DNA from: Klebsiella phage ZCKP1
Length of the DNA stretch: 64,000 bases
Strand: one strand, 5' to 3'
Sequence record: MH252123.1
The notes beneath the pieces were generated by a model. That model was not told the origin of the DNA. It saw only the letters and a program-made list of their open reading frames with translations, and did not search any database. Below, in pieces: positions 36,573-49,855 of the stretch. A program made the position numbers and the translations under genes. Every line of letters starts with the position of its first letter. Position 1 is the first letter of the stretch.

Positions 36573-36761
36573 ATGGCACGTTTAGCAGACCATGAAATCT
36601 TTAAACCTATTCTGAACCACTATGATGAACTTAAAGCAGTGTTGGATTGTTATAGAGAGGATGAAGAACGTTTGGAAATCAATCTTAAGATAGTTCTGAT
36701 GAAAGCTTTTCAAGACGGGCAAGCTAAAGTCTTAGAAGGCATGAAAAATGAGAATAACTGA
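36573..36761 (+). CDS. hypothetical protein, 62 aa
   Basis: start refined to the ATG after AAAGGAGAAACT. Confidence 0.45.
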   Translation: MARLADHEIFKPILNHYDELKAVLDCYREDEERLEINLKIVLMKAFQDGQAKVLEGMKNENN

Positions 36762-37290: not shown

Positions 37291-37533
37291 TATTTTAACT
37301 TTTTTCATTTTTAGAACAAAGGCGTCACTTTGTAGCACAGAAATAAGGCTCCTACAGCACCGTAGAGAGCCTATTATTTTGTCCTATACAAACCCTTGTC
37401 TTTTTCAGTTTGCATCACTAGGATTCGATCTGAGTGGGTTCCTGAAGGTCTGCCAATAAGATTAAAGGTTATCTCAAATTCCCATTACCTATTATCTCAA
37501 AAATCCCTCAAATTATTTAAACTTTTTAAGAAT

Positions 37534-37580
37534 TTACAAAAGTGAAAGTTGAAAACCAAAATTTAAAGTTTAGGAAAATT
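37534..37580 (+). repeat. ~47-bp direct repeat, copy 1 (TTACAAAAGTGAAAGTTGAAAACCAAAATTTAAAGTTTAGGAAAATT)
   Basis: imperfect copy at 37672..37719. Confidence 0.6.
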
Positions 37581-37671
37581 ATCTTAAAATGTCAGATACA
37601 AAACAAAACTCAAAAGTCAAGGAAAATTTTAAAAATTTTGCGCGCCCACAGTATTTAAAGTTTTTTTGCTT

Positions 37672-37719
37672 TTACAAAAATGAAAGTACAAAAGCAAAAT
37701 TTAAAGTTTACAAAAATTT
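37672..37719 (+). repeat. ~47-bp direct repeat, copy 2 (TTACAAAAATGAAAGTACAAAAGCAAAATTTAAAGTTTACAAAAATTT)
   Basis: matches 37534..37580 with a few substitutions. Confidence 0.6.
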
Positions 37720-37731
37720 ATGCAGATGGGA

Positions 37732-37748
37732 ATGAGAAGAGTTCTCAT
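37732..37748 (+). promoter_or_regulatory. perfect inverted repeat ATGAGAAgagTTCTCAT (operator-like)
   Basis: seen in sequence. Confidence 0.45.
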
Positions 37749-37768
37749 ATGGAAATGCAAATGATAAT
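37748..37768 (+). promoter_or_regulatory. Fur-box-like operator motif copy a (AAATGATAATGATTCGCATTT)
   Basis: matches the Fur consensus core AATGATAATCATT at 12 of 13 positions. Confidence 0.45.
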
Positions 37769-37816
37769 GATTCGCATTTAGGTTTATAAATGAGATTGAT
37801 TCTTATTTGATAAGGT

Positions 37817-37837
37817 AAATGATAATCATTCTCATTT
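37817..37837 (+). promoter_or_regulatory. Fur-box-like operator motif copy b (AAATGATAATCATTCTCATTT)
   Basis: contains the perfect 13-bp palindrome AATGATAATCATT. Confidence 0.5.
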
Positions 37838-38095
37838 AGAAAATGACGCGCAGGGGCGGTGTTTGTCTCGCGCTCCCGTGTCCCCTCGCCATGTAATAAG
37901 AATAACAGATCCAGCCAGGAAAGCAAGCGATTATTTTATCTTTACATTTCTTTACAAATATATAGCGCCCAGCCTACCGGCGATCAACCTTCCAACCAGT
38001 GCCCCTGGTATGTTAGCCCCGCCTTTACGCCGTGGGGTGGCGCTTCCTCTTCTGTATGTAAAACAGTATAAGCCCGATCCCTGGGCTTGTCAAGA

Positions 38096-38362
38096 TTATT
38101 TTTTGTTTTCTTGCCAGGATAGGACACCTAACCAAAAATACATATCGCCCCGCGCCCCTGGTGGGATCTTGCTTTCCCCGCCGCCACTGCAAGCCCATAG
38201 ATAACCATTTGCGAACGTATCAAAATGATCTATCTCTTCCACCTTATGATCGCCCAGGTTGAGAACGGTTTCAACCTTTAAGCCCGTTGCGCTTGCTACC
38301 TGGTGCACCGTGCCGCCTTGCCAGCCCAATGAGTGCATAAGGTGTAATGTAGTATTTGTCAT
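38096..38362 (-). CDS. hypothetical protein, 88 aa; the only minus-strand ORF in the GC-richer segment, doubtful
   Basis: ORF track; weak RBS AAGGGCG. Confidence 0.3.
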   Translation of the reverse strand: MTNTTLHLMHSLGWQGGTVHQVASATGLKVETVLNLGDHKVEEIDHFDTFANGYLWACSGGGESKIPPGARGDMYFWLGVLSWQENKK

Positions 38363-38471
38363 GGTATCGCCCTTTCTTTGATGTGCGCCCTGGTTGGCGC
38401 GGTAGAAAGATGATAGCCCTTTCTTTTATATATAGCAAGCAAAAAGAAAATAAAAAAGATTGAAAAAGTGG

Positions 38472-38500
38472 TTGACGTTCCTCACCTGGTAGCGTAGTAT
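38472..38500 (+). promoter_or_regulatory. sigma70-like promoter P0 (TTGACG-N17-TAGTAT) opening the array; long leader, no hairpin
   Basis: seen in sequence. Confidence 0.5.
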
Positions 38501-38635
38501 TCATCTTGTCGAGGGGGGCGCGGCACAACGACAATAAACAACAGGAGGGCGCAATGTAGGACGGGCAAAGGTGAGGATCTCCATAATCCACCGTCCACCA
38601 ACAAAAAACATCATTCATCACCTGGAGTTAAAATC

Positions 38636-38833
38636 ATGGCAACATTGCACATAGTAGCGAAAGCAGGACAAATCAGCGTCGTGGTAAACGGTTTTACTGA
38701 GTTCAGTCATCCCCAGGATGATCATGAAACGGTTTTATCTTTTATTGATTCCTTGTTAGAAATGGGAGTCATTACAGAAGACCAGCACGCTACAAAATGC
38801 AAGCGCGTTAATCAAATTGCAGGGATAGAATAA
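38636..38833 (+). CDS. array ORF 1, 65 aa
   Basis: promoter P0 plus a 135-nt leader; RBS GGAG. Confidence 0.5.
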   Translation: MATLHIVAKAGQISVVVNGFTEFSHPQDDHETVLSFIDSLLEMGVITEDQHATKCKRVNQIAGIE

Positions 38834-38839
38834 AAAGTA

Positions 38840-38899
38840 TTGACAACAAACAACAACCTGATAAGATGTATCACATAGGGCGGGAAGTGGTTTCCCGCT
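38840..38899 (+). promoter_or_regulatory. promoter and 5' hairpin unit P1: TTGACA-N16-TAAGAT, then GGGCGGGAA-gtggt-TTCCCGC
   Basis: near-consensus -35 and -10; GC hairpin starts 2-3 nt after the predicted +1. Confidence 0.6.
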
Positions 38900-38923
38900 C
38901 GTAACAGAAGAGAGATTATCATC

Positions 38924-39196
38924 ATGGCATCATATAGCGCAACAATGATCGTAGCTGGCACAACTGGTAAACCTATGAGCGGTGGCGGATCTTTCGCTAA
39001 TATCAATATTGACGGGCGTTTATCCCTGGACGCAGCGATCGCCATTGCACGGGAAACATTTAAGAAAGAATGTAATTTCAACAAGCAAGATTATCTCGGT
39101 TTCGCTATTGAAAAAACCGCGCGCTTTGTTGATTATAAAAGCCCGAAAATGGTTGACACTACATTAAAAGCGCAAGATGTAGCGTTTTTGCTTTAA
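38924..39196 (+). CDS. array ORF 2, 90 aa
   Basis: promoter and hairpin unit P1; RBS AGAGAG. Confidence 0.55.
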   Translation: MASYSATMIVAGTTGKPMSGGGSFANINIDGRLSLDAAIAIARETFKKECNFNKQDYLGFAIEKTARFVDYKSPKMVDTTLKAQDVAFLL

Positions 39197-39199
39197 GGC

Positions 39200-39255
39200 T
39201 TGACATTAACGAATAATTTGTTAATATGTTACATAAAGCGGGAATAGTTCCCGCT
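39200..39255 (+). promoter_or_regulatory. unit P2: TTGACA-N16-TAATAT, then AGCGGGAA-tag-TTCCCGCT
   Basis: seen in sequence. Confidence 0.6.
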
Positions 39256-39272
39256 GTTTGTAAGGTGGTAGA

Positions 39273-39530
39273 ATGTTTTACATCAAATTAAAAGGTCACG
39301 TGATCGCGTTCAAAGATAACGCTTTTTACAGATTAGCAAAATATGCGTTAATACATCCCCACTATGTTTATATAAGGGGGCGTGATGAAATAAATATCTT
39401 TGATCAAACAACATGCGAAAACATCGAGATCCGCAAGGTTGGCGTACGTGATTATCGTACATCTTTCTACCCTTGCAAGGATTCAGCAAGTCTTTTTAAA
39501 GTATGCCAATTGTTGAAAAAAGGTGGTTAA
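39273..39530 (+). CDS. array ORF 3, 85 aa
   Basis: unit P2; RBS AAGGTGG. Confidence 0.55.
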   Translation: MFYIKLKGHVIAFKDNAFYRLAKYALIHPHYVYIRGRDEINIFDQTTCENIEIRKVGVRDYRTSFYPCKDSASLFKVCQLLKKGG

Positions 39531-39531
39531 T

Positions 39532-40089
39532 ATGGGCCGCGAATATGTGATCCAGTCTTGGGTAAAACACGAAGCAGATGATCCGCGCATCATTCCCGAT
39601 CATCTTATCGATGAATCCACGGGATATAGCGGTGAGCAAATAGGTAACAGATCAGCACGTAGTAACGGCAACGTAAAAGCGCGCTATGTGCGCCCTGGTT
39701 GGCTGGCAAATGGTAACGCTGATTTATCCAGCGCGGGAGATCCTAGCGACGGCGCGAAAGATAATCCCTTGTACAAAGTTGATCCGGCTTTTCGTGTCCT
39801 GGATGAATACCCCAGCAAGATAGCGGCGCTTGATGAAGCTCTGGAAAGTAAGCGCATCACCTGGACCGCTTACAACATGGCAAAAAACGTACTTGATGGT
39901 AAGCTGATCCAGGCTGAAAGAAAATTAGCCAAAATTGCAGCCATAGCCCAGGAGGAAGACGAGGAGACAACGGAAGAGGAAGAGTACGAAGAGATCCCGC
40001 CGTTGTTGTGTGTTGATGCTTTTCCTGATTATCAGCCGACAGAGGAAGAAAAAAGGATCGCGCTAGAAAACTTTGAAAATAGTCTTTGA
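39532..40089 (+). CDS. array ORF 4, 186 aa, with a strongly acidic C-terminal tail (EEDEETTEEEEYEEIPP)
   Basis: start refined to the ATG after AAAGGTGG; no promoter of its own, so co-transcribed with ORF 3. Confidence 0.5.
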   Translation: MGREYVIQSWVKHEADDPRIIPDHLIDESTGYSGEQIGNRSARSNGNVKARYVRPGWLANGNADLSSAGDPSDGAKDNPLYKVDPAFRVLDEYPSKIAALDEALESKRITWTAYNMAKNVLDGKLIQAERKLAKIAAIAQEEDEETTEEEEYEEIPPLLCVDAFPDYQPTEEEKRIALENFENSL

Positions 40090-40143
40090 CATATCGCCGC
40101 CACTGGCATAATATTTACCACGTAGGGCGGCAATGGTGCCGCT
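40086..40143 (+). promoter_or_regulatory. unit P3: TTGACA-N17-TAATAT, then AGGGCGGCAATGGTGCCGCT
   Basis: seen in sequence. Confidence 0.6.
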
Positions 40144-40171
40144 CATAGTGAAATTATGCAAGAGGTTTACA

Positions 40172-40267
40172 ATGATTAATAAAGAAAATAGCTTGACGGT
40201 TGGAACGATTAACGCTATCATTTTCGCCGTTCCATTTTGGGTTGTAGTAGCGGCTATTATTTTCTAA
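40172..40267 (+). CDS. array micro-ORF, 31 aa hydrophobic peptide (MINKENSLTVGTINAIIFAVPFWVVVAAIIF)
   Basis: sole ORF downstream of unit P3; RBS AAGAGG. Confidence 0.4.
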   Translation: MINKENSLTVGTINAIIFAVPFWVVVAAIIF

Positions 40268-40276
40268 AAAATATTC

Positions 40277-40337
40277 TTGACAACGTTTTTTAATCTGATA
40301 AGATGTATCACATAGGGCGGCGGAATACTTCCCCGCC
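40277..40337 (+). promoter_or_regulatory. unit P4: TTGACA-N16-TAAGAT, then GGGCGGCGGAAtactTCCCCGCC
   Basis: seen in sequence. Confidence 0.6.
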
Positions 40338-40358
40338 AAAACAAAAAAGGGTAACACA

Positions 40359-40721
40359 ATGAGCAAGCAAATCAATACTATCATGTTTAATCTGGTATCT
40401 TTCCGCGATGATATGAAAAATTTACCACGTGAAACGGTTGATATTCATGTTTCAGCTTATCGCGCCCTTATTGATATGTTACCGCTAAAACGTGATCAAC
40501 ATGCCGCTAATATGATGCTTAATGCTATGCTTAAAAAGATGATTCAAACGGATCTTACCCTGGCATATGAGTATCAAGGGCGCTTATATGCAACTTACAA
40601 CAGAGCGGTACCTGGTCTGGGAAGTACTGAAGAGTTGCACGGCTTAAACCTGGATCAAAACACTTGGGATAGTATGCGCCGCGTTATGGTATGGGCCGAA
40701 AGCGGTAAAATTTACGAATAA
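40359..40721 (+). CDS. array ORF, 120 aa
   Basis: unit P4; RBS AAAAGGG. Confidence 0.55.
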   Translation: MSKQINTIMFNLVSFRDDMKNLPRETVDIHVSAYRALIDMLPLKRDQHAANMMLNAMLKKMIQTDLTLAYEYQGRLYATYNRAVPGLGSTEELHGLNLDQNTWDSMRRVMVWAESGKIYE

Positions 40722-40727
40722 AAACGG

Positions 40728-40787
40728 TTGACACTGTTTAAAATTCTAGTATAGTTTACCACATAGGGCGGGAAATGGTTTCCCGCC
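40728..40787 (+). promoter_or_regulatory. unit P5: TTGACA-N16-TATAGT, then GGGCGGGAAatggtTTCCCGCC
   Basis: seen in sequence. Confidence 0.6.
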
Positions 40788-40809
40788 AACAATGAAAAAG
40801 GTTATCATC

Positions 40810-41175
40810 ATGGCTATTAATATTAATGTTTCCTCTTATGCTACCCTGGCTAACACGGCTAAAATTGAATTATCCAGCATTGAGGCGGTGCATATTAGCG
40901 CCCGTCGCTGGTTCCAACAGTCCTACGGTAATACATATTTTTCTTTAATGGTTGACGTTGAGATCGGCGGTAAACTGATCGAGGTGGTTAACGTTCCGTT
41001 TCAATATGGCTATGGTGATCATTTTGATACCGTCGCCCTGGAAGAGTTTAGCAAGGTTATCAACCTGGAGGGCAAAGAGTTTTCACGCGGCGCGTATCTT
41101 TCCCGTTTTTGCCGTGATAATGGGATCGCTGTATACAGTCATGCAAGCGATGTTAAACGTAAAAAAGATTTATAA
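40810..41175 (+). CDS. array ORF, 121 aa (MAININV...)
   Basis: unit P5; start refined to the ATG after AAAAAGG. Confidence 0.55.
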   Translation: MAININVSSYATLANTAKIELSSIEAVHISARRWFQQSYGNTYFSLMVDVEIGGKLIEVVNVPFQYGYGDHFDTVALEEFSKVINLEGKEFSRGAYLSRFCRDNGIAVYSHASDVKRKKDL

Positions 41176-41182
41176 AAAGCAT

Positions 41183-41241
41183 TGACAGCACGAATAAAAA
41201 GAGTAAACTGTATTACATAGAGAGCGGGAACACTTCCCGCC
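41183..41241 (+). promoter_or_regulatory. unit P6: TTGACA-N15-TAAACT, then GCGGGAAcacTTCCCGC
   Basis: seen in sequence. Confidence 0.55.
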
Positions 41242-41264
41242 TCACTGAAAAAGAGAGAAAAATC

Positions 41265-41504
41265 ATGGCTAAATCTAAAATGTACAACGGTCACAAAAAC
41301 AGAAATCATTGGAATGTAAGCCTTTGGATTAATAACGATGAATCGTTATACCGGTTGGCCCAAGATTTTATTAACGCTAATGCTAATCGTAATGATGCGG
41401 CGCGGGATATGATGCTTTTTCTGGAACAAACTGGACAAGATAAAACGCCAGACGGTTTCAAATATAGCACTACTGCGATCCGCGCCGCGATGGTTGGAAT
41501 GTAA
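41265..41504 (+). CDS. array ORF, 79 aa
   Basis: unit P6; RBS AAAGAGAGAAAA. Confidence 0.55.
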   Translation: MAKSKMYNGHKNRNHWNVSLWINNDESLYRLAQDFINANANRNDAARDMMLFLEQTGQDKTPDGFKYSTTAIRAAMVGM

Positions 41505-41512
41505 TAAAAACA

Positions 41513-41572
41513 GTTGACAACGTTTAAAATTAGTGTAAGATGTATCGCATAGGGCGGGAAGTGGTTTCCCGC
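41513..41572 (+). promoter_or_regulatory. unit P7: TTGACA-N16-TAAGAT, then GGGCGGGAAgtggtTTCCCGCC
   Basis: seen in sequence. Confidence 0.6.
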
Positions 41573-41595
41573 CAACAACAGAGAGATTAAAGATT

Positions 41596-41823
41596 ATGGC
41601 TATCAATATTGTTCGCGTATCCGGCACCGTTGGCACTTCCCAGGTTATTGCAGTTGTAACAAACAAAAAGATTAATGATGTATGTGAGATCTTGAATAAG
41701 TGGGCTATTGCTAATTTTGGGAAATATGCAAGCGTCGAGTACATCGAATCCTACCAGGTGCCAACCATCAGCCTAACCGATCTCAACGTTGATCGCCTGT
41801 TATGCCTGGATGAATTGATCTGA
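41596..41823 (+). CDS. array ORF, 75 aa (MAINIV...)
   Basis: unit P7; RBS AGAGAG. Confidence 0.55.
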   Translation: MAINIVRVSGTVGTSQVIAVVTNKKINDVCEILNKWAIANFGKYASVEYIESYQVPTISLTDLNVDRLLCLDELI

Positions 41824-41832
41824 AAAAGATTG

Positions 41833-41889
41833 TTGACACCGGAAAGAAAAAGAGTAAACTGTATTACGTAGGGCGGCAATGGTGCCGCT
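41833..41889 (+). promoter_or_regulatory. unit P8: TTGACA-N16-TAAACT, then AGGGCGGCAATGGTGCCGCT
   Basis: seen in sequence. Confidence 0.6.
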
Positions 41890-41913
41890 CACAACAGAAG
41901 AGAGATTATTACG

Positions 41914-42129
41914 ATGGCTAATATCCGCACACTGTTAAAAAATGCAAGTCAAGTTTTATTTTCAGATGACGAGTATTTCAATAAAGACATTACAGGCGTA
42001 AAAAATCTTAAAGATGTAAAGGATGTGATAGGTATTCGCGGATCTTTACGTAAAGGTGACTACTACGGCAATAAAGTACAATATAAATTAAATCAGTCTT
42101 ATGATTTTACTTTGACAATTATTTCATAA
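41914..42129 (+). CDS. array ORF, 71 aa
   Basis: unit P8. Confidence 0.55.
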   Translation: MANIRTLLKNASQVLFSDDEYFNKDITGVKNLKDVKDVIGIRGSLRKGDYYGNKVQYKLNQSYDFTLTIIS

Positions 42130-42135
42130 AACCGC

Positions 42136-42198
42136 TTGCAATCTTAATAAAATAAAGTAAACTGTATTACATCAAGGCGGCGGAATGGTCCACCGCCT
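42136..42198 (+). promoter_or_regulatory. unit P9: TTGCAA-N16-TAAACT, then GGCGGCGGAAtggtCCACCGCC
   Basis: seen in sequence. Confidence 0.55.
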
Positions 42199-42221
42199 AA
42201 CAAAGAGAAGAGGAAAACACC

Positions 42222-42389
42222 ATGATCACTTTCGCTACCCGTGAAGCCGCTCGCAACGTTGCCCGTAAAGTTAACGCCGCCAACCTGGGCGCTACGCTTA
42301 AAGCCCCGGTGAAAGATGAATCAGGCGCGTGGATCTTTCCTGGTCTGCGTCACGCTGATAAGCTAGGCACTTTAAGCCTTAAAAAATAA
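42222..42389 (+). CDS. array ORF, 55 aa (unlisted; MITFATREAARNVARKVNAANLG...)
   Basis: unit P9; RBS AGAGAAGAGGAAAA; start MITFA shared with the next ORF. Confidence 0.45.
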   Translation: MITFATREAARNVARKVNAANLGATLKAPVKDESGAWIFPGLRHADKLGTLSLKK

Positions 42390-42392
42390 TCG

Positions 42393-42430
42393 TTGACTTT
42401 TCGTTATAGCGCCCATTATAAGGCGCTATA
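42393..42430 (+). promoter_or_regulatory. promoter P10: TTGACT-N17-TTATAA with inverted repeat TATAGCGCC/GGCGCTATA overlapping the -10 (operator-like)
   Basis: seen in sequence. Confidence 0.5.
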
Positions 42431-42462
42431 GAGAAGAGAAACACTACTAACAAGGAAACATC

Positions 42463-42684
42463 ATGATCACTTTCGCTATTGTCGCCGTTGTTGCTGGTCA
42501 GGTTTACATAAACGATACATTCACCACAGAAGACAAGGCCGCAGGAGACATAACCGCCGTTTACAATGAGTGCAAGGCAGTAGAAAGGATGTTAGCGCCT
42601 TGTATGCTAATGAGTGAACGCCAGGACGGGATAACAGTGTTTACTAACATTGAGACAGGGTACCAAATGGTAGTAACAAAATAA
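42463..42684 (+). CDS. array ORF, 73 aa (MITFAIVAVVAG...)
   Basis: unit P10; RBS AAGGAAAC. Confidence 0.5.
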   Translation: MITFAIVAVVAGQVYINDTFTTEDKAAGDITAVYNECKAVERMLAPCMLMSERQDGITVFTNIETGYQMVVTK

Positions 42685-42687
42685 AGC

Positions 42688-42744
42688 TTGACACGGATTT
42701 AATTTTCAGTAAACTGTTACACGTAGGGCGGGAATAGTTCCCGC
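42688..42744 (+). promoter_or_regulatory. unit P11: TTGACA-N16-TAAACT, then AGGGCGGGAAtagTTCCCGCT
   Basis: seen in sequence. Confidence 0.6.
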
Positions 42745-42762
42745 TAAAAAGAGAGAAAAACC

Positions 42763-43116
42763 ATGAAAGCACAAAATGCAATTAAAGAGTACATCCTTGC
42801 CGCTATCGATTTTAATGATTACGGTATTACAACCGAAAAAGAGAAGATCGCGGAATTGATGCGCCGTTTTAATTCCGAGTACTGGTACCCTGATAACCAA
42901 TCACGTTTTAATTATAGTATTGTTAAAGCACTTGCATCATGGTTACAAGGTTTGCCATCAGATATTAATATCGCTTTCGAATATTGGGAAATTGATCGCT
43001 TGTTAACATCCTGGGGATACATTAAAGAGAATAGCAGCGATGATAAAATCCAACGAGAAAGGGAAAATTATTGGCTTTATATTGCAGGCGTGATCCTTGC
43101 TTGCTCTTATGAATGA
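42763..43116 (+). CDS. array ORF, 117 aa
   Basis: unit P11; RBS AAAGAGAGAAAA. Confidence 0.55.
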   Translation: MKAQNAIKEYILAAIDFNDYGITTEKEKIAELMRRFNSEYWYPDNQSRFNYSIVKALASWLQGLPSDINIAFEYWEIDRLLTSWGYIKENSSDDKIQRERENYWLYIAGVILACSYE

Positions 43117-43122
43117 TAAACC

Positions 43123-43176
43123 TTGACAATTTTACAAAACAGTTAAAATTAATAATATAGCGGCAATGGTGCCGCT
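43123..43176 (+). promoter_or_regulatory. unit P12: TTGACA (or TTTACA-N16-TAATAT), then AGCGGCAATGGTGCCGCT; the -10 assignment is ambiguous
   Basis: seen in sequence. Confidence 0.45.
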
Positions 43177-43195
43177 CATATAAAGAGGAAACAAA

Positions 43196-43342
43196 ATGAA
43201 TACATCTAATCGCGCAGAAAAAATCCAATCTTCCAAGATCCGCAAGGCCTGGAACGAGGAAGTGATCCGCAAAGGCGACAAGCGCAATAAAACAAAGCGC
43301 GGGAAGAGTGACAAATATAATTGGATGGATTTAGAGGATTAA
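43196..43342 (+). CDS. array ORF, 48 aa, Lys/Arg-rich basic peptide (unlisted)
   Basis: unit P12; RBS AAAGAGGAAAC; followed by intrinsic terminator. Confidence 0.45.
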   Translation: MNTSNRAEKIQSSKIRKAWNEEVIRKGDKRNKTKRGKSDKYNWMDLED

Positions 43343-43348
43343 CATAAC

Positions 43349-43377
43349 AAGGGCGCACCAAGCGCCCTTTCTTTTTA
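43349..43377 (+). terminator. intrinsic terminator T4 within the array (AAGGGCGCaccaaGCGCCCTT plus TCTTTTT)
   Basis: seen in sequence; identical hairpin to T5. Confidence 0.7.
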
Positions 43378-43397
43378 CATGTAGAGGATAAATAAAA

Positions 43398-43583
43398 ATG
43401 ACTTTAAACGAGCTTAAAACAGCCTACAACGCAACGTTAAAAATAGCCGTGCGTTACCGTGACGAATACGGTTTTATTGCGCAGGGCGTGATCCTGGGCT
43501 TTTCTGACGATGGTTTGATCTATGTTGATGCACATCACAACAAGGTTAAACCTGAAAACGTCATTAACATAAAATATCTTTAA
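43398..43583 (+). CDS. array ORF, 61 aa
   Basis: RBS GAGGATAAATAAAA; no promoter of its own (follows terminator T4). Confidence 0.45.
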   Translation: MTLNELKTAYNATLKIAVRYRDEYGFIAQGVILGFSDDGLIYVDAHHNKVKPENVINIKYL

Positions 43584-43589
43584 AAACGG

Positions 43590-43650
43590 TTGACACCATA
43601 ACCGGACCTGTTAAACTGTATTACATCAGGCGGGGGAATAGTTCCCCACC
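43590..43650 (+). promoter_or_regulatory. unit P13: TTGACA-N16-TAAACT, then GGCGGGGGAAtagTTCCCCACC
   Basis: seen in sequence. Confidence 0.6.
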
Positions 43651-43669
43651 ATACAAAAAGGTAAATATT

Positions 43670-43876
43670 ATGATCACCGCAAAACAAGAAAAAATTATTA
43701 TCGACGTTGCAGCCGTTGCCGCTATTGCTATTATTGGATCTTATTATGATACCCGTTTCCCGTCGGCTATGCATGAGATCGCCGCCGTTGCATCGGTTGG
43801 CGTGCTGTTTTACGTTGGTAAACGCTATTTATCACCAATGATTAACAAGCTGACACCGTGGAAAAATAAAGGTTGA
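43670..43876 (+). CDS. array ORF, 68 aa membrane protein
   Basis: unit P13; two TM helices. Confidence 0.5.
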   Translation: MITAKQEKIIIDVAAVAAIAIIGSYYDTRFPSAMHEIAAVASVGVLFYVGKRYLSPMINKLTPWKNKG

Positions 43877-43927
43877 TCCTGTTTTATATTGTGTTATAGT
43901 TATCGTGTAGGGCGGCAATGGTGCCGC
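43873..43927 (+). promoter_or_regulatory. unit P14: TTGATC-N16-TATAGT, then AGGGCGGCAATGGTGCCGC
   Basis: seen in sequence. Confidence 0.55.
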
Positions 43928-43948
43928 GCCCCCTTTGAGGATGAAATC

Positions 43949-44233
43949 ATGAGTAAAGCTAACACCGTGCTAATGTTTTCCCTGGTTAATGATGCCGCTC
44001 GCTTGTCCAACATGACGCAGGAGGGTAACACATTAACGGCAACATTCACCAATAAGCTTAATCGAGTGATCATCATCTCACTGAAAACAGTTAGTAAAGG
44101 CTTTTACTCGTTAGCTTATCATTGGATCACTGATACCAACGAGACAAGCCAAGATTATAGCGCCCCTTTCCCTGAATCAATGGCACGGGAGATCATCGCC
44201 GCCGTTGTAAATGATGGTTTGTTTACTGAATAA
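43949..44233 (+). CDS. array ORF, 94 aa
   Basis: unit P14; start refined to the ATG after GAGGATGAAATC. Confidence 0.5.
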   Translation: MSKANTVLMFSLVNDAARLSNMTQEGNTLTATFTNKLNRVIIISLKTVSKGFYSLAYHWITDTNETSQDYSAPFPESMAREIIAAVVNDGLFTE

Positions 44234-44251
44234 AATAATTTAGAAAAAGGC

Positions 44252-44279
44252 TTGCAATCATTGTCACTATCTTATCAAT
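44252..44279 (+). promoter_or_regulatory. atypical promoter P15: TTGCAA-N16-TATCAA, no hairpin
   Basis: seen in sequence; weak. Confidence 0.3.
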
Positions 44280-44299
44280 CATCTTATAAGGTGCATACC

Positions 44300-44461
44300 A
44301 TGAAAACCGCAGACATTATCAAAGAGATCGCCCTTGCCGCTGACGTTGAGATCGAGGAAGTGATCGCGCTCAATCTTACAGAAAACGATCTGCGCAACTA
44401 TGAAGCGGAAAGCGTGAAAGCAAGCGGCGCGGTCCTGGTGTATGATCCGGCTAACAAGTAA
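44300..44461 (+). CDS. array ORF, 53 aa
   Basis: atypical promoter P15 (no hairpin); RBS AAGGTG. Confidence 0.4.
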   Translation: MKTADIIKEIALAADVEIEEVIALNLTENDLRNYEAESVKASGAVLVYDPANK

Positions 44462-44470
44462 GGGGGTAAC

Positions 44471-44581
44471 ATGAATCCGAAAGATATGCAAGCATGGAAA
44501 GGGTACGACGATCTGAGCGCCTTGCGTAATAAGTCCAGCCGTAACCTTAGACGGTTGGAAGCAAAGAAAAAGAAAAAATAG
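44471..44581 (+). CDS. array micro-ORF, 36 aa basic peptide (unlisted)
   Basis: RBS AAGGGGGTAAC directly after the upstream stop. Confidence 0.35.
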   Translation: MNPKDMQAWKGYDDLSALRNKSSRNLRRLEAKKKKK

Positions 44582-44582
44582 T

Positions 44583-44639
44583 TTGACAAGTCCGCGTAGT
44601 CTGGTAATATGTATCTTGTAGGGCGGCAATGGTGCCGCT
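44583..44639 (+). promoter_or_regulatory. unit P16: TTGACA-N16-TAATAT, then AGGGCGGCAATGGTGCCGCT
   Basis: seen in sequence. Confidence 0.6.
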
Positions 44640-44659
44640 CACAAGAAGAGAGAAAAATC

Positions 44660-44944
44660 ATGAAAATCACAAAAAGCCTAACTAATTATGCAGCACGTCG
44701 CGGATTATGTTTAACCGTTGAAAACTTAGGGAAAGAAGACTTTTTGTGTTTTTGGGAGCTTGAAAATGATTGCGAGTGGATGTTTTCCTATTCTATCTGC
44801 GAAGATCAAAACGGTTGTTTGTTAACCTGGCGCGGTAATATCTATTTACCGGAAGAAATTAAAGAAGAGTTACCAGGTACGATCATGACAGAGAGACAGC
44901 TTAAGGAAGTGATCAATTTTGTAGGGCAAAACATTAAAAAATAA
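44660..44944 (+). CDS. array ORF, 94 aa
   Basis: unit P16; RBS AGAGAGAAAAATC. Confidence 0.55.
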   Translation: MKITKSLTNYAARRGLCLTVENLGKEDFLCFWELENDCEWMFSYSICEDQNGCLLTWRGNIYLPEEIKEELPGTIMTERQLKEVINFVGQNIKK

Positions 44945-44945
44945 T

Positions 44946-45009
44946 TTGACAGTAGGCAAACAACGTAGTAAAGTTTATTACATAGAGCGGCGGAATGGTC
45001 CACCGCTCA
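44946..45009 (+). promoter_or_regulatory. unit P17: TTGACA-N17-TAAAGT, then GAGCGGCGGAAtggtCCACCGCTC
   Basis: seen in sequence. Confidence 0.55.
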
Positions 45010-45029
45010 CAACAGAAGAGAAACAAATC

Positions 45030-45200
45030 ATGATCCCGACTATGTTTTATGTATCGCGCAAAGGTCACAATATTTTTTGGTCTGAAGATTTAAATGAAGC
45101 CATGACGTTTGCCCGTAATCGTGTTGCTATCGGTGGCGTTAACATCACCGTAACCGATGAAAACGGCATTGAATACTATAACGGCGACGATGAAGAGTAA
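45030..45200 (+). CDS. array ORF, 56 aa
   Basis: unit P17; RBS AGAAGAGAAAC. Confidence 0.45.
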   Translation: MIPTMFYVSRKGHNIFWSEDLNEAMTFARNRVAIGGVNITVTDENGIEYYNGDDEE

Positions 45201-45206
45201 TTAATA

Positions 45207-45229
45207 AGGCGGGGAATACTTCCCGCCAC
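45207..45229 (+). other. orphan leader-type hairpin AAGGCGGGGAAtactTCCCGCCAC with no promoter in front
   Basis: same hairpin family as the array leaders; sits directly after the ORF stop at 45200. Confidence 0.45.
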
Positions 45230-45266
45230 GCAGTGAATTTTCCGTTTGGGAAGTAAAAAATAAATC

Positions 45267-45328
45267 TTGACGATAATTTGTTATCTGATAGAATGTATTT
45301 CGTAGGGCGGGGCAATAAGGCAACGCCC
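45267..45328 (+). promoter_or_regulatory. unit P18: TTGACG-N16-TAGAAT, then GGGCG(gggcaataaggcaa)CGCCC (divergent hairpin)
   Basis: seen in sequence. Confidence 0.5.
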
Positions 45329-45346
45329 ATTAATGAGGGTAGAATC

Positions 45347-45451
45347 ATGTTAGAGAAAATTTTCACGGTTGTAATAGTGGGCCTGGCGTTATCGGTTGGA
45401 GTGGTTGCAACTATGGCTAACATGATCCTATCTTCCCACGGTATCGGCTAA
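45347..45451 (+). CDS. array micro-ORF, 34 aa hydrophobic peptide (MLEKIFTVVIVGLALSVGVVATMANMILSSHGIG)
   Basis: unit P18; RBS GAGGGTAGAATC. Confidence 0.4.
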   Translation: MLEKIFTVVIVGLALSVGVVATMANMILSSHGIG

Positions 45452-45461
45452 GGTGAAACAA

Positions 45462-45677
45462 ATGATCACGAATAAGACAGGTAAAACGGAATTTTTACGC
45501 GGCTTGCAAGTTGGTAAACCTGAGATCTGGCATTGTACTAAATCCGCGCATAATGAAATGAAAGATTTTACCGCTACTTTACAACGTGTTAAAATATCTA
45601 TCACACAGAAAAAAGCCTTGTTAGTAGTAGAAAACGAGATCCCGAAAACTATTATTATTGTCGAGCGTACAGCATGA
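45462..45677 (+). CDS. array ORF, 71 aa
   Basis: RBS AAGGTGAAA; co-transcribed with the micro-ORF. Confidence 0.5.
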   Translation: MITNKTGKTEFLRGLQVGKPEIWHCTKSAHNEMKDFTATLQRVKISITQKKALLVVENEIPKTIIIVERTA

Positions 45678-46060
45678 AAACAGAAATCATTATTGAAATC
45701 ATCAACGGTTATAAAGAAGCCTTTATTTTTGCTGAATCAGCAAGGGATCATGAAGGTAATTTTATTGATAACTTAGACGATTATGATTTTTCTCCTAGCG
45801 CGGACGAACGGATCGCCCAGGATGTAACAGCTTTTATTAATGCTAATCTTGCCGCTATCTCTGAGGCAATGAGCGACGGCGCAACAGCCAACCAGATCGG
45901 GAATGATTTACATTTTACCCGTAACGATCACGGCGTAGGCTTTTGGGATCGCCCTGAAATATACACCACTAACACGGCGAACCGCCTAACCAATGCAGCT
46001 AAGTTTATGCCGAACGTGTCGGCTTACATTGGTGAAGATAATTTTATTTATATTGAATAA
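45674..46060 (+). CDS. array ORF, 128 aa
   Basis: ATGA overlap with upstream gene. Confidence 0.5.
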   Translation: MKTEIIIEIINGYKEAFIFAESARDHEGNFIDNLDDYDFSPSADERIAQDVTAFINANLAAISEAMSDGATANQIGNDLHFTRNDHGVGFWDRPEIYTTNTANRLTNAAKFMPNVSAYIGEDNFIYIE

Positions 46061-46066
46061 AAAGTA

Positions 46067-46123
46067 TTGACACAGATCGCCAGTGTGATAATATTTACCA
46101 CGTAGGGCGGCAATGGTGCCGCT
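46067..46123 (+). promoter_or_regulatory. unit P19: TTGACA-N16-TAATAT, then AGGGCGGCAATGGTGCCGCT
   Basis: seen in sequence. Confidence 0.6.
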
Positions 46124-46144
46124 CCCCGAAAAAGGTAAAACATC

Positions 46145-46336
46145 ATGAAAACTATCTCCTACCTGGAATCAAACAACATGTTTTTTGCCCCCGTTGATGA
46201 AATTATCGAGGCTTTAAACAATGAAGAGGGGATCAATGGATTATCTTACGACCAACTTTTACAACTGGTTGCAACAAATGAAAAACTTGCTTACTATGTT
46301 GAAAATTTTGATGAAGCTGTAATCTTTACAAAATAA
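46145..46336 (+). CDS. array ORF, 63 aa
   Basis: unit P19; RBS AAAGGTAAAAC. Confidence 0.55.
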   Translation: MKTISYLESNNMFFAPVDEIIEALNNEEGINGLSYDQLLQLVATNEKLAYYVENFDEAVIFTK

Positions 46337-46339
46337 TCC

Positions 46340-46396
46340 TTGATCTAATCTCTCAGATAACTTATATTTAATGCGTAGGGCGGCAATGGTGCCGCC
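46340..46396 (+). promoter_or_regulatory. unit P20: TTGATC-N17-TATATT, then AGGGCGGCAATGGTGCCGCC
   Basis: seen in sequence. Confidence 0.55.
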
Positions 46397-46414
46397 GATA
46401 ATGAGGAAAACAAA

Positions 46415-46714
46415 ATGGAAACTATCGCTATTGTTACCGTAGAAAAACTGGTTGTTGGTGATGTATTCGCGTTAATGGTGCCTAACAGCAGCAAGCTGGG
46501 CGCTTATGAAGTAATGGATCATAAAAATGAATCATTTGGCGACGGTTGCACAATGGCGGTAAAATCTTTAAGGGATGGAATCATCCGTCAAGCTAACTGG
46601 CACAAAGGGAATCAAGTCGGTTTAATATCAGCTAATTTCTTGCCAGAAGAGCAAACGTTAGACCAACTATCAGGCGGTAAGACGTTAGCCGAACTACTGG
46701 AAACAGCGATCTAA
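46415..46714 (+). CDS. array ORF, 99 aa
   Basis: unit P20; RBS GAGGAAAAC. Confidence 0.55.
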   Translation: METIAIVTVEKLVVGDVFALMVPNSSKLGAYEVMDHKNESFGDGCTMAVKSLRDGIIRQANWHKGNQVGLISANFLPEEQTLDQLSGGKTLAELLETAI

Positions 46715-46721
46715 TCGACAA

Positions 46722-46737
46722 GGGGCGGCAACGCCCC
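46722..46737 (+). other. orphan GC hairpin GGGGCG-gcaa-CGCCCC between array ORFs
   Basis: seen in sequence; no U-tract and no upstream -35/-10. Confidence 0.4.
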
Positions 46738-46767
46738 CATTAAACGCAATAGGAAGAGGATAGACAC

Positions 46768-47058
46768 ATGAAAAAGATGATCGCAGTAGTTGCCCTGGTT
46801 GTTGGTATTAACGCGCCTGTACTGGCTAATGAGTTGCCAGAATCCATCACGCTAACCGATATCAACGCAATAAACCGGATCGGCGTTAATTATCGCCTAT
46901 GCCTTGCCGCTAAAACTTTCCAGGACGGCACGACAGAATACCACGGATTCGAGGGTATCCGCTGCGGTGAGCTTGCACGCGACCTTAAGGAAGATCCAGA
47001 CCTTGAGGCCATACCGATGACCGTAAACGGTAAAGCTTACGTAAACCGCCAACAATGA
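46768..47058 (+). CDS. array ORF, 96 aa exported protein (signal peptide MKKMIAVVALVVGINAPVLA)
   Basis: RBS GGAAGAGGATAG; preceded by an orphan hairpin. Confidence 0.5.
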   Translation: MKKMIAVVALVVGINAPVLANELPESITLTDINAINRIGVNYRLCLAAKTFQDGTTEYHGFEGIRCGELARDLKEDPDLEAIPMTVNGKAYVNRQQ

Positions 47059-47069
47059 GAAAGGTAATC

Positions 47070-47189
47070 ATGACAATGGGGATCATAGTAGCAACGCTGG
47101 CGCTGATCCCCTTCCTGGTTGAATATGTGCTTATTAGTGTTGTCCTGGTAGTCAGTGACTTATTGGAAACGGTTGGCACCTGGTTTTAA
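47070..47189 (+). CDS. array micro-ORF, 39 aa hydrophobic peptide (unlisted)
   Basis: RBS GAGAAAGGTAATC. Confidence 0.35.
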   Translation: MTMGIIVATLALIPFLVEYVLISVVLVVSDLLETVGTWF

Positions 47190-47200
47190 GGAATAATAAA

Positions 47201-47392
47201 ATGAATACAGAACAAGTTAGAAAGGTATTAGCAGCGTTGCGGTATCACAACCATAGCAAGGTAAAGAATGATCCTGATTATGTGGATTCAAGCCTGGAAG
47301 AAGACACATTGCAAGCTATAAGCCATATGCGAGAATTGTTTAAGCGTATGACAGAGAAAAACAGATCTGATTATATAGGTGACGAGATCTAA
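47201..47392 (+). CDS. array ORF, 63 aa
   Basis: RBS AAGGAATAATAAA. Confidence 0.45.
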   Translation: MNTEQVRKVLAALRYHNHSKVKNDPDYVDSSLEEDTLQAISHMRELFKRMTEKNRSDYIGDEI

Positions 47393-47399
47393 AATAGCT

Positions 47400-47456
47400 T
47401 GCACAATGTATCTGATAGTGTAAGATGTATCACGTAGGGCGGCAATGATGCCGCTC
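47400..47456 (+). promoter_or_regulatory. unit P21: TTGCAC-N16-TAAGAT, then AGGGCGGCAATGATGCCGCT (loop variant)
   Basis: seen in sequence. Confidence 0.55.
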
Positions 47457-47476
47457 ACAACTGGAAGGAAAACACC

Positions 47477-47680
47477 ATGACTACAGCTAACCGCCTGATC
47501 GCCGTCCTGAACAAAGCAAAGGCTAACCGCCTGGATGTTCAAATCAAAGAGCAAGCAAATGGCGAGATCCTTGCTACGGTGTCCGATGGCGGTTATGTAT
47601 CGGAATCATTTTTATCAGGGAGCTTAGATCATCTTGTTTGGAAATTAGAAATTATCGTGGAGGATATGCAAATCATCTAA
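47477..47680 (+). CDS. array ORF, 67 aa
   Basis: unit P21; followed by terminator T6. Confidence 0.55.
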   Translation: MTTANRLIAVLNKAKANRLDVQIKEQANGEILATVSDGGYVSESFLSGSLDHLVWKLEIIVEDMQII

Positions 47681-47688
47681 TCTTTACA

Positions 47689-47720
47689 AAAACAGGGCTT
47701 GCTTTTGTCCTGTTTTTTGT
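47689..47720 (+). terminator. intrinsic terminator T6 (ACAGGGCttgcttttGTCCTGT plus TTTTTGTT)
   Basis: seen in sequence. Confidence 0.55.
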
Positions 47721-47855
47721 TATGCTTATTGAACGGGCGGCACTGGCAACGGGGGAGGTAATCACCGGACGACCCCGCTATATATTGATAGCTAACACCT
47801 ATCAAACAACAAAACATCAAAGAGATAAACTATCGAATCTTTACAATTCTACCTA

Positions 47856-47884
47856 TTGACACCGGATCACGCTTACATTATCAT
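47856..47884 (+). promoter_or_regulatory. promoter P22: TTGACA-N17-TATCAT with a decayed hairpin remnant (TAGGGCaaatc)
   Basis: seen in sequence. Confidence 0.5.
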
Positions 47885-47930
47885 TTATCACGTAGGGCAA
47901 ATCATTTTAAACGGTAAACGAGGAATCACC

Positions 47931-48314
47931 ATGAGCAATATCATCAACCTGGCAGCGACTGTAAACGGTAAAGACTTTAACGGCGCTGTAGACCGTGATC
48001 CTATGTGGTGCTTGTCAGTGTTTAAAGGCGACCTGGTTGAAGTTAGAACAACCGAAGGTTATAGCGACGATTATAAATGCGAGATTCATTTACATAATTG
48101 GTACACGGGTAAAACTTATGCGCTGAATCACGCGTTTATCGGAAAAATCGAATATCGTGAGATGATCGACGAAGAAACGGGGCAAGATTTTAGCGAAAAC
48201 GTTTATATTCGTTCAGAAACATTAGCCGAACGTTTGATCGAGAAAATGAAAGCAAAAAATAAAATTAATTTATCTCATTGGATTGATATAACAAACGATC
48301 CAGCTTATCAATAA
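47931..48314 (+). CDS. array ORF, 127 aa; last gene of the array
   Basis: promoter P22; start refined to the ATG after AACGAGGAATCACC; followed by terminator T5. Confidence 0.5.
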   Translation: MSNIINLAATVNGKDFNGAVDRDPMWCLSVFKGDLVEVRTTEGYSDDYKCEIHLHNWYTGKTYALNHAFIGKIEYREMIDEETGQDFSENVYIRSETLAERLIEKMKAKNKINLSHWIDITNDPAYQ

Positions 48315-48328
48315 ATAACATTTCATAC

Positions 48329-48357
48329 CAGGGCGCACCAAGCGCCCTTTCTTTTTG
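48329..48357 (+). terminator. intrinsic terminator T5 closing the array (CAGGGCGCaccaaGCGCCCTT plus TCTTTTTG); duplicate of T4
   Basis: seen in sequence. Confidence 0.7.
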
Positions 48358-49316
48358 CCCGAACAATGTTGATAGATTCCGCCTATGGAAAACAGACACA
48401 GAACAAAACTGAATAAATAGCGGTATCAAGCTAATCAACCATTAAACGAATAACCATACCTCCCAGGGTAACAGGCTGTTAGAGAGCCATTTATAGCGGT
48501 TAAAATCGATCAACAACCAACAACAAACTATCAAAAACACCCTTTTACCTCCTTTCCAGTGCAATGATAACCATTATCATCTATCCATGTTTATCTATGC
48601 AATATAAGTGCATAACTATAATGTTGATAACAGTTCGCAACAACTAACTAACCAACAACCTAAAACAATAAGCAAACTAATCATAATCAAAGGAATAATA
48701 GCAAGATGATTGATAACGACAAACAATCAAACCATGATGAATACTAAGCAAGATAACGATAACACGACAAAACAACCAACTAACGAACAATAACAAACGA
48801 AACCATTAAAATAATAACTATTAGCAAAATAGTGCCTGAATGAAATCATTACAAAACGAATCATTCACAGAGTCATCATTAGCACGCTATGCCGGACACA
48901 TAGCGAGCTAATAATAAGCCAACTACACCCCAACAATCATAACCATCGGTGACGGTTATTTCTTGTTATTGCGTAGCTTGCAATAATTGCAAGCGTAATT
49001 ACGCTTACACTTATTGCGCTGGCTTATTATTAGCATTATATGTAATTACCAAGATCATAACATTAGCGCAATAACAATAATCATTGTGGTAATTACATAA
49101 GGAAACAATTAGCATAGCAATAATTATGGGGGCAATGGGAGGATGATTATCATCATTCCGATACATTGCACACTATGCACATAATAGAATAAAAGTCAAT
49201 AATTTTGGGGGCGAAATGTTACCGCCACAGGCGGGAATGTTGAGCAAGTTCTCTTAAACGTAAATAAAATCAGAAAATTCTTGATTTATTTTAGTTTTTA
49301 TGTTAATAAACGTTTA

Positions 49317-49337
49317 AATAATAATCATTCTCATATA
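49317..49337 (+). promoter_or_regulatory. Fur-box-like operator motif copy c (AAATAATAATCATTCTCATAT)
   Basis: 12 of 13 match to the palindrome; shares the ATCATTCTCAT extension with copy b. Confidence 0.45.
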
Positions 49338-49495
49338 AATAATAGTCTGCTTGTCATGAGCGGGATTAGTTGACAATGTTCCGTCATATGATGAAGTTGC
49401 CAAACCATTGATAAATAAGCGTTTGTGTGATTTATAATCAAGTGGCCCACCTTGTCGCTATGTTGGCATAAGCCTTGCATAAGTCATTGAATACG

Positions 49496-49520
49496 AATGA
49501 TAATTATTCTCATTCGCATG
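49496..49520 (+). promoter_or_regulatory. Fur-box-like operator motif copy d (GAATGATAATTATTCTCATTCGCAT)
   Basis: 12 of 13 match; followed by TGAGAA, giving the inverted pair TTCTCA...TGAGAA. Confidence 0.45.
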
Positions 49521-49855
49521 ATATTTGAGAATTGTCGCTGCGTGGACCTGACGGCCCGAAAATTCGCGTTAAGCACTTCTTACGTATACGCCATGATTTT
49601 TGCCATATGATATTGATTCTATTAGATATTCTTGCCATGATTGCCATGAAACAGGGTGTGTCGAAATAATCTCTCCCCGTGGATATTTTGGGTTACTTTT
49701 TATACAAGAGTGGGGTGTCAAAAATAATCGGTATATATGGGATAATTGATAGGGAAAAGCAATGATAAATGAATTGTAATTGCCGAAGGTTGTTGGTAGG
49801 ATGTTCCTCGTTGAGAGTTACGATGTTTGTCATGAAACCAAGAGAGGAGATTATC

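Follow-up and report, generated by a model that had tools for sequence, protein, structure and literature searches.

Fur-like boxes at both borders of the terminal early gene block of a Phapecoctavirus genome

Layout of the early block and the genome end

A 64,000-nucleotide stretch of the genome of Klebsiella phage ZCKP1 (sequence record MH252123.1; referred to here as the window) was analyzed for palindromic sites that resemble the boxes recognized by the host metal sensor Fur. Between 37 and 50 kb the window is 94 to 97% identical to genomes of Phapecoctavirus, the phAPEC8-like virulent myoviruses of Escherichia coli with genomes of about 150 kb, and it is assigned to that genus. About 30 small plus-strand genes, whose function in relatives is nearly always unknown, occupy 38.6 to 48.3 kb and make up what an earlier reading of this DNA (the original prediction) had called a promoter array. 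This early block is flanked by two long gene-poor stretches, 37291-38095, in which no coding gene is annotated in relatives, and 48315-49768. The palindromic sites lie in these two stretches, as a left cluster of four copies with an exact 29-bp period (starts at 37731, 37760, 37789, and 37818; span, 37731-37837) and as at least six copies on the right side, from 48560 to 49519 (Table 1).

The original prediction had listed four copies of the motif, two on either side of the array. The motif itself was real and three of the four intervals were right (37817-37837, 49317-49337, and 49496-49520), but the first was about 10 bp off, the actual copy lying at 37760-37777, within the 27-bp palindrome of 37753-37779. 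The copy number was an undercount, since the left side holds four copies at the 29-bp period and the right side has further copies at 48560, 49022, 49070, and 49139. The perfect 13-bp palindrome said to lie within copy b was found at 37818-37830, where it reads AATGAT-A-ATCATT (6-1-6), and the half-site inverted repeat ATGAGAAgagTTCTCAT was indeed perfect, at 37732-37748.

Mapping of the chromosome end placed both sets of sites in a common frame. A 328-bp terminal repeat has been reported for phage Schickermooser (PMC6563267); both ends of its record consist of the same 329-bp sequence, repeated exactly, which corresponds to window positions 49243-49571, and several other phage records start or end at this coordinate. 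Both repeat borders are followed by AGCAnnTTCT (49243, AGCAAGTTCTC; 49572, AGCACTTCTTA), and the border flanks TTGTTG^AGC and CGCGTTA^AGCAC are conserved in another genus and may be terminase cutting signals. Since the repeat maps to these positions, boxes R5 and R6 lie inside it and are present at both ends of the virion DNA, and the "promoter array" represents the last ~12 kb of the chromosome, or 7.8% of its length. The inner border of this terminal block is marked by the left array, 11,840 bp (7.8%) from the terminus. The bracketing of the array by boxes reflects genome-end architecture.

Table 1. Positions of the boxes and associated features in the window (scores from the Fur matrix described in the text)
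Feature	Position	Strand	Sequence or description	Score (bits)
AT-rich direct repeats	37509..37724		Two copies of a 72-nt unit, 138 bp apart; sub-repeats TTTAAAGTTT/TTTACAAA; adjacent to the left array on its outer side	
L1	37731..37748		AATGAGAAGAGTTCTCAT; perfect 7-3-7 palindrome, first unit of the 29-bp array	13.2
L2	37753..37779		27-bp palindrome AAATGCAAATGATAATGATTCGCATTT; two overlapping 7-1-7 units	15.1 (37757) and 14.1
L3	37788..37808		AAATGAGATTGATTCTTATTT; weakest copy; GAGAATGATTCT in phage anhysbys	11.5
L4	37817..37837		AAATGATAATCATTCTCATTT; top site of the window, 16/19 to the consensus	21.3 (37815)
Leader	37843..37895	minus	~50 nt, GC-rich, between leftward promoter and L4; contains the invariant GAGACAAWCACC	
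Promoter P1	38065..38093	minus	TTGACA-17-TATACT, sigma-70, 11/12 match; fires leftward to the boxes	
Terminator of last early gene	48330..48348		Upstream of R1	
R1	48560..48582		TGCAATGATAACCATTATC; ~210 bp beyond the terminator of the last early gene	17.0
R2-R4	49022..49040, 49070..49088, 49139..49160		Weaker Fur-like sites within the nest of inverted repeats	13.0-14.5
Direct terminal repeat	49243..49571		329 bp, at both physical ends of the virion DNA; mapped via Schickermooser	
R5	49314..49337		AATAATAATCATTCTCAT; 74 bp inward of the left border of the terminal repeat	15.5
R6	49493..49519		Two overlapping sites; flank TCTCATTCGCA; 58 bp inward of the right border of the terminal repeat	17.2 (49493) and 18.8 (49499)

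Likeness of the sites to E. coli Fur boxes

The sites were scored with a palindromic 19-bp Fur matrix derived from 14 Fur-controlled promoter regions of E. coli K-12 (fepA-fes, fepD-entS, fepB-entC, fhuA, feoA, ryhB, cirA, fecI, fecA, fiu, fhuE, tonB, exbB, and fhuF), for which the true E. coli sites gave leave-one-out scores of 6.3 to 20.3 bits. The best phage sites (21.3, 18.8, 17.2, 17.0, 15.5, and 15.1 bits) were on par with the best chromosomal Fur sites. At thresholds of at least 13, 15, and 17 bits the window contained 18, 7, and 5 sites, whereas first-order Markov simulations yielded 3.5, 0.8, and 0.16. Of the 18 sites of at least 13 bits, 12 fell in the two non-coding stretches, for which shuffles of the same AT-rich sequences gave 0.06 and 0.26; the sites of these stretches were far more numerous than in shuffled AT-rich DNA, against which the original prediction had proposed to set the matrix scores. 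In another 84 kb, from the closest complete relative, only four scattered sites of at least 13 bits were found, and over ~148 kb of phage DNA the sites of at least 15 bits were almost confined to the two non-coding stretches. Word counts gave the same picture. The 18-mer AATGATAATCATTCTCAT, with up to 3 mismatches, had 9 strand-hits at 6 distinct sites versus 0.22 expected, a number of hits reached in none of 100 shuffles, and the 13-mer AATGATAATCATT, which had been put forward for counting, occurred 22 times with up to 2 mismatches versus 5.5 expected. An isolated Fur-like site (AATTATTAAAATCATTATC; 19.7 bits) was also present at 5804-5822, outside both clusters and in DNA read as coding; it may be due to chance.

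The resemblance extended to the details of box architecture. The site at 37815 matched the consensus GATAATGATAATCATTATC at 16 of 19 positions, and six more sites matched at 15 or 14 of 19. The R5 copy at 49317-49334 is identical to the ryhB Fur box over 18 of 18 bp, and the copy at 49496 has the same TCTCATTCGCA flank as ryhB; the asymmetric ATTCTCAT half (GAGAAT/ATTCTC half-sites) is also found at fhuA, feoA, exbB, entC, and fecI. The heptamer pattern of Fur boxes (TGATAATnATTATCA inverted, or at least three NATWAT hexamers) was present, L4 reading TGATAAT-C-ATTCTCA. The classic Fur box consists of two overlapping 7-1-7 units, and overlapping double sites 6 bp apart occur at L2 (37757/37763) and R6 (49493/49499). 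Boxes for Fur, Zur, and PerR are told apart by the bases of the heptamer; the strong phage copies all read TGA(T/G)AAT, with GA at heptamer positions 2 and 3, which is the Fur type rather than the Zur or PerR type. By every sequence test that was run, the sites are Fur-box-like, and it is probable that Fe-Fur binds them in the cell.

Phage muut, a member of another genus (Justusliebigvirus), has the same layout. Two boxes of 17.1 and 23.1 bits lie 200 to 290 bp beyond its last early terminator, and the equivalent of the terminal repeat contains two more, of 22.3 bits (counterpart of R5) and 17.9 bits (counterpart of R6). The repeat borders are conserved, and the sequence between them and the flanks of the boxes have diverged. 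The comparison amounts to a phylogenetic footprint in which the Fur consensus rather than the exact sequence has been kept.

Transcription toward the boxes and their distribution among phages

A scan for sigma-70 promoters revealed no convincing promoter that overlaps any box of the window. No -35 or -10 element or start site was found over a box beyond matches that were marginal (9/12) and not conserved between genera, and these marginal matches come from the resemblance of the box itself to a -10 element. Conserved promoters lie 60 to 230 bp from the boxes and read toward them. The -35 and -10 elements of promoter P1 are kept across genera while its GC-rich spacer has diverged. Of 17 units drawn from several genera, 12 have a second leftward promoter whose -10 element ends 60 to 69 nt short of the box. 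The left array stands at +55 to +160 downstream of conserved leftward promoters. The rV5-like phages have two tandem promoter-leader-box units. Leftward transcription would meet, in order, the four-box array, the AT-rich iteron-like repeats, and a convergent gene at its 3' end, and the rightward order is terminator, R1 to R6, and chromosome end; every box is downstream of outward-firing early transcription. The proposal that the boxes are operators of early promoters or replication genes was not borne out, as the boxes overlap no good promoter, the left array is downstream of its promoters, and the right boxes lie beyond the terminator and in the terminal repeat. The sites have the sequence features of Fur boxes, yet do not overlap a regulated promoter as Fur boxes do. 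The only open reading frame between the terminal-repeat boxes (49331-49480, minus strand) has no ribosome-binding site and is unannotated in relatives, and was therefore treated as spurious.

Between the leftward promoters and L4 the leader contains the 12-mer GAGACAAWCACC (GGTGWTTGTCTC on the plus strand, 37864-37875), which is at a constant 20 to 22 nt from the box across several phage genera, including loci from IMG/VR. The GC-rich 250 bp to the right of L4 are unannotated DNA that is conserved across genera, and they were resolved into the minus-strand promoters, whose spacers are GC-rich, and the short leader. The leader hairpin is weak, with folding z scores of -0.5 to -2.4, slightly better than those of shuffles. 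The conserved non-coding stretch of ~219 nt downstream of P1 (37840-38093, minus strand) is G-rich on the transcribed strand; the consensus fold of this whole region was moderate (z of about -3.7 on either strand), and a structured minus-strand RNA may be made from it. A Fur-controlled, ryhB-like small RNA on the plus strand downstream of L4 was rejected, because its fold (z of -0.5 to -0.7) was like that of shuffles and the conserved promoters are on the opposite strand; the plus-strand consensus structure of 12 relatives had an energy of -3.3 kcal/mol and one covarying pair. A search of Rfam at a permissive threshold over 36.5 to 50.5 kb returned chance-level matches only. The hairpin at 38070-38088 was discarded as a terminator since it is the spacer of promoter P1. 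Within the same region, a conserved tandem TCTTTACnnnTCTTTACAAA at 37940-37960 forms two direct repeats one helical turn apart, with a weak minus-strand promoter match; it resembles OmpR-type sites (TTTACA).

When the 121-bp left array was used as a query, 448 phage records matched. The holders were the Stephanstirmvirinae, the Vequintavirinae and their relatives (with Escherichia, Klebsiella, Cronobacter, Salmonella, and Pectobacterium as hosts), and the Demerecviridae, that is, T5-like siphoviruses. L4 is kept in rV5-, CR9-, and Klebsiella-phage-like relatives, and the rV5-like, CR9, and T5-like loci have the same boxes at ~29-bp spacing with scores of up to 22.9 bits. A repeat_region is annotated at the position of L2 in the record of phage anhysbys. 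The array had no match in 5,426 complete E. coli genomes, and a host origin of the array was rejected on this basis. In T5-type genomes a Fur-like site of 17.7 to 21.8 bits was also found within dmp, in the 3' portion of the gene and ~230 bp from the physical left end (HASG4, 229-253; T5, 228-252); in HASG4, of which 80 kb were scored, this location and the injection-stop region were the only ones with sites of at least 15 bits.

No Fur homologue was detected by tblastn with an E value below 4 in the window, in 84 kb of a relative, or in 30 kb of a T5-like genome. A tblastx comparison of 80 kb of T5-like DNA with 148 kb of Phapecoctavirus DNA recovered only NrdA, NrdB, NrdD, PhoH, SIR2, a phosphatase, and a hydrolase, and no shared DNA-binding protein or regulator at the sensitivity of BLAST. 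The proteins encoded next to the array (a NADAR domain protein, a gp30.8-like protein, and unknowns) were considered as binders and set aside, as no DNA-binding domain was recognized in them. Since the site is common to unrelated phages that share only their hosts, a host protein is indicated. The original prediction had left the choice between host Fur and a phage-encoded repressor; the Fur-like sequence of the sites stood and a host factor is favored, whereas the phage repressor is less favored, the phage families having only metabolic enzymes in common.

The remaining features of the two gene-poor stretches are as follows. The AT-rich direct repeats beyond the left array may be an origin or an array for another protein; at the equivalent position, the rV5-like and CR9 relatives have unrelated iteron-like arrays (TCTCGATCG...TTTTCGTTTTC units in CR9). 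On the right, the DNA at 48400-48960 has a strong strand asymmetry and is A+C-rich, with runs such as caacaaccaacaacaaac and an AT skew of +0.24, and it is followed at 48898-49100 by nested inverted repeats, among them two 19-nt repeats that abut each other at 48980-49017. The left non-coding stretch is immediately preceded by the gene (36748-37290) for the NADAR (DUF1768) protein, and a DUF1768 gene is also present in a T5-like phage (16238-16687). A tRNA scan of the window found none. Among the database records, about 19 that are named "Campylobacter phage" (MG065650, MG065645, MG065658, and others; stated host, Campylobacter jejuni) share 96% identity with the genomes of these E. coli phages and are probably mislabelled or contaminants.

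Possible function of the boxes and comparison with known systems

We tentatively propose, as the best of the explanations considered, that the boxes are host Fur sites acting as boundary or roadblock arrays, with iron-dependent occupancy, that fence the zone of early transcription. Dimers of Fe2+-Fur would occupy the 7-1-7 units at high affinity and would have no promoter-operator role; rather, the cis-acting arrays would mark both borders of the terminal early block on the linear genome, the right set reaching from beyond the last early terminator into the 329-bp repeat and the left set forming a four-site array just downstream of the leftward sigma-70 promoters. Bound Fur would then serve as a roadblock or insulator that confines the very strong early transcription by host polymerase to 38 to 48.3 kb. 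The right boxes would keep polymerase from the chromosome end, the left array would prevent an antisense run into the convergent genes and repeats on the left, and occupancy, hence leakiness, would be set by the iron status of the cell.

Several points weigh against this proposal. The case for Fur is drawn wholly from sequence, and to our knowledge Fur is not established as a roadblock for polymerase during elongation. The 29-bp period corresponds to no known Fur arrangement, being neither a multiple of the 6-bp hexamer nor a number of whole helical turns. In some copies the central three bases vary (GAG, TTT), which is poorly tolerated in the Fur 7-1-7 unit, and these variant copies retain ATGAGAA/TTCTCAT, which is compatible with a different dimeric protein. 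Since GAGACAAWCACC is invariant and at a fixed distance from the box, a further component must be at work that is unaccounted for by the boundary model. Finally, the left-end box of T5 is within the coding sequence of dmp, where a roadblock makes little sense, and its meaning is doubtful.

The other explanations were ranked, from the most to the least probable, as a phage or virion protein, a T5-type entry gate, classical operators, packaging or replication signals, and a Fur sponge. It is rather unlikely, if less so than for the others, that the sites belong to a phage-encoded or virion-carried protein that favors a Fur-like palindrome (ATGAKAA-N3-TTMTCAT), with the likeness to Fur being incidental or mimicry. 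The phage consensus is a 10-1-10 palindrome with conserved G/C where Fur prefers T/A and with a variable central triplet, the 29-bp arrays recall iteron or centromere-type sites, and the invariant adjoining 12-mer suggests a dedicated complex. However, the short list of proteins shared by T5-like and phAPEC8-like genomes and the lack of a recognizable DNA-binding domain in neighboring genes provide no such protein, the sites evolve toward the Fur consensus in other genera, and abundant Fe-Fur would compete for them anyway. Also unlikely is a gate for stepwise DNA entry like the T5 injection stop, in which the terminal 12 kb would enter first and the rest would pause at the protein-bound left array until early proteins act, the factor being Fur or another pre-existing host protein. 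Although two-step transfer was never reported for these myoviruses, the left array shares homology with direct repeat C and palindromes G/H/I of T5, it stands at nearly the same fraction of the genome as the T5 cluster beside its 7.9% nick, and the sole conserved promoters aimed at the genome interior face it. Such a gate also presumes which end goes in first, it would operate with a terminal repeat of 329 bp rather than 10 kb and without the paired DnaA boxes of T5, and a cytoplasmic protein cannot bind DNA that is still outside the cell.

Classical Fur operators, which would repress overlapping promoters at high iron and tie early expression or replication to iron, are not supported and are regarded as improbable. 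Hexamers resembling -10 elements occur inside the boxes (TATCAT, GATAAT), weak promoter-like matches overlap several boxes, the minus-strand box orientation mirrors the ryhB promoter, and the phage has iron-dependent ribonucleotide reductases. These overlapping matches are nevertheless the marginal, non-conserved ones described above, and there is no obvious downstream target, as the left array faces repeats and then a convergent gene at its 3' end, the next gene is 250 to 450 bp away from the boxes of the terminal repeat, and the sole nearby open reading frame is the one treated as spurious. A role as cis elements in end formation, packaging, or replication (terminase or initiator sites), with a chance likeness to Fur boxes, is quite improbable. 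Two boxes do lie in the terminal repeat among other conserved islands, iteron-like repeats adjoin the left array, and the T5 cluster is ~500 bp from the inner repeat border at 10139 (equivalent to the right physical end), but no terminus is closer than 11.8 kb to the left array, terminases or initiators that are unrelated would need one shared recognition sequence, and chance cannot explain scores at the level of the best host sites in several genera. The least probable explanation, and a very unlikely one, is a Fur sponge, in which ~10 boxes in each of hundreds of replicated genomes would titrate Fur and derepress host iron uptake for phage iron enzymes. Multicopy Fur boxes derepress the Fur regulon, which is the basis of the Fur titration assay, each genome has many high-scoring sites of predicted high affinity, and nrdA, nrdB, and nrdD are present in both phage lineages. 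A sponge, on the other hand, has no need for fixed positions, 29-bp phasing, placement in the terminal repeat, or an adjacent promoter and 12-mer. Moreover, T5 destroys host DNA during first-step transfer, according to a preprint (bioRxiv 10.64898/2026.04.02.716235), and derepression would therefore be pointless there.

Fur boxes are textbook promoter operators. Phased arrays in the terminal repeat and at the border of the early block would give the host metal sensor an architectural role on viral DNA, in a pattern common to two unrelated lineages of virulent enterobacterial phages. They would also supply a concrete host candidate for the repeats at the first-step-transfer border of T5, which are still treated as anonymous in the T5 literature examined. 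A bolder conjecture, which we hold to be improbable, is that Fur is the missing trans-acting factor of the T5 injection stop and that a two-stage takeover gated by Fur is common to T5 and the phAPEC8- and rV5-like myoviruses. If so, the terminal ~8% would enter and be expressed first, a Fur-DNA complex would delay polymerase or DNA beyond the inner array, and commitment to infection would be coupled to host iron status. Phage therapy often picks phAPEC8-, rV5-, and T5-like phages and infection sites are iron-poor, so an early dependence on iron would matter.

Among known systems, roadblock or boundary elements and the polymerase-driven entry of T7-type phages may offer an analogy and no more, in that the sites flank the block that is expressed first and stand downstream of its strong early promoters, which face the rest of the genome. 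Host Fur sites on the DNA of temperate phages have been described upstream of sitABCD in lambdoid prophages (PMC6969025). Those boxes are ordinary promoter operators of cargo genes that the prophage expresses, whereas the present phage is virulent and its sites are not at promoters. The E. coli Fur boxes themselves (ryhB, fhuA, fhuF, and fepD-entS) share with the phage sites the 19-bp consensus, the 7-1-7 unit, overlapping doubles, and equal scores; unlike them, the phage sites are off the -35 and -10 elements of a regulated promoter, in a 29-bp array and a terminal repeat, and beside a 12-mer.

The closest counterpart is the injection-stop region of T5. Its repeats were sequenced in 1987, and the comparative study of the region by Davison, which records that date, discusses DnaA boxes, IHF, and FIS and does not mention Fur or iron; in the literature searched, no paper ties Fur to these phages or to the T5 repeats. 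The paired DnaA boxes that accompany the T5 region (Davison 2020) were not seen here, as neither non-coding stretch contained TTWTNCACA or was enriched for it and only two variants were present, at 48622 and 49301. A 10-kb terminal repeat, arrays of direct repeat D, and a nick beside the boxes are found only in T5, the repeat being 329 bp here, and further boxes inside the terminal repeat itself are found only in the present phage. The main cluster of T5 lies beyond the terminators of its rightward pre-early unit, as the right boxes lie beyond the early terminator here. Window positions 37753-37807 align with T5 9576-9630 and with other T5-like phages at 80 to 85% identity over 55 bp and with the same 29-bp spacing. 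The match falls on annotated "direct repeat C copies 3/4, palindromes G, H, I," L2 being the counterpart of palindrome G and direct repeat C, within Repeat Region 3 of T5 (direct repeat C copies 1 to 4 and palindromes E, G, H, and I; AY587007, 9468-9637). The T5 boxes lie within 9470-9640, and 24 bp separate the end of this cluster from the nick annotated as "major single-stranded nick 1, 7.9%," the border of first-step transfer. In both phages the boxes occupy a long piece of untranslated DNA on the inner side of the terminal early block (pre-early in T5), at a distance from the genome end of 7.9% in T5 and 7.8% here.

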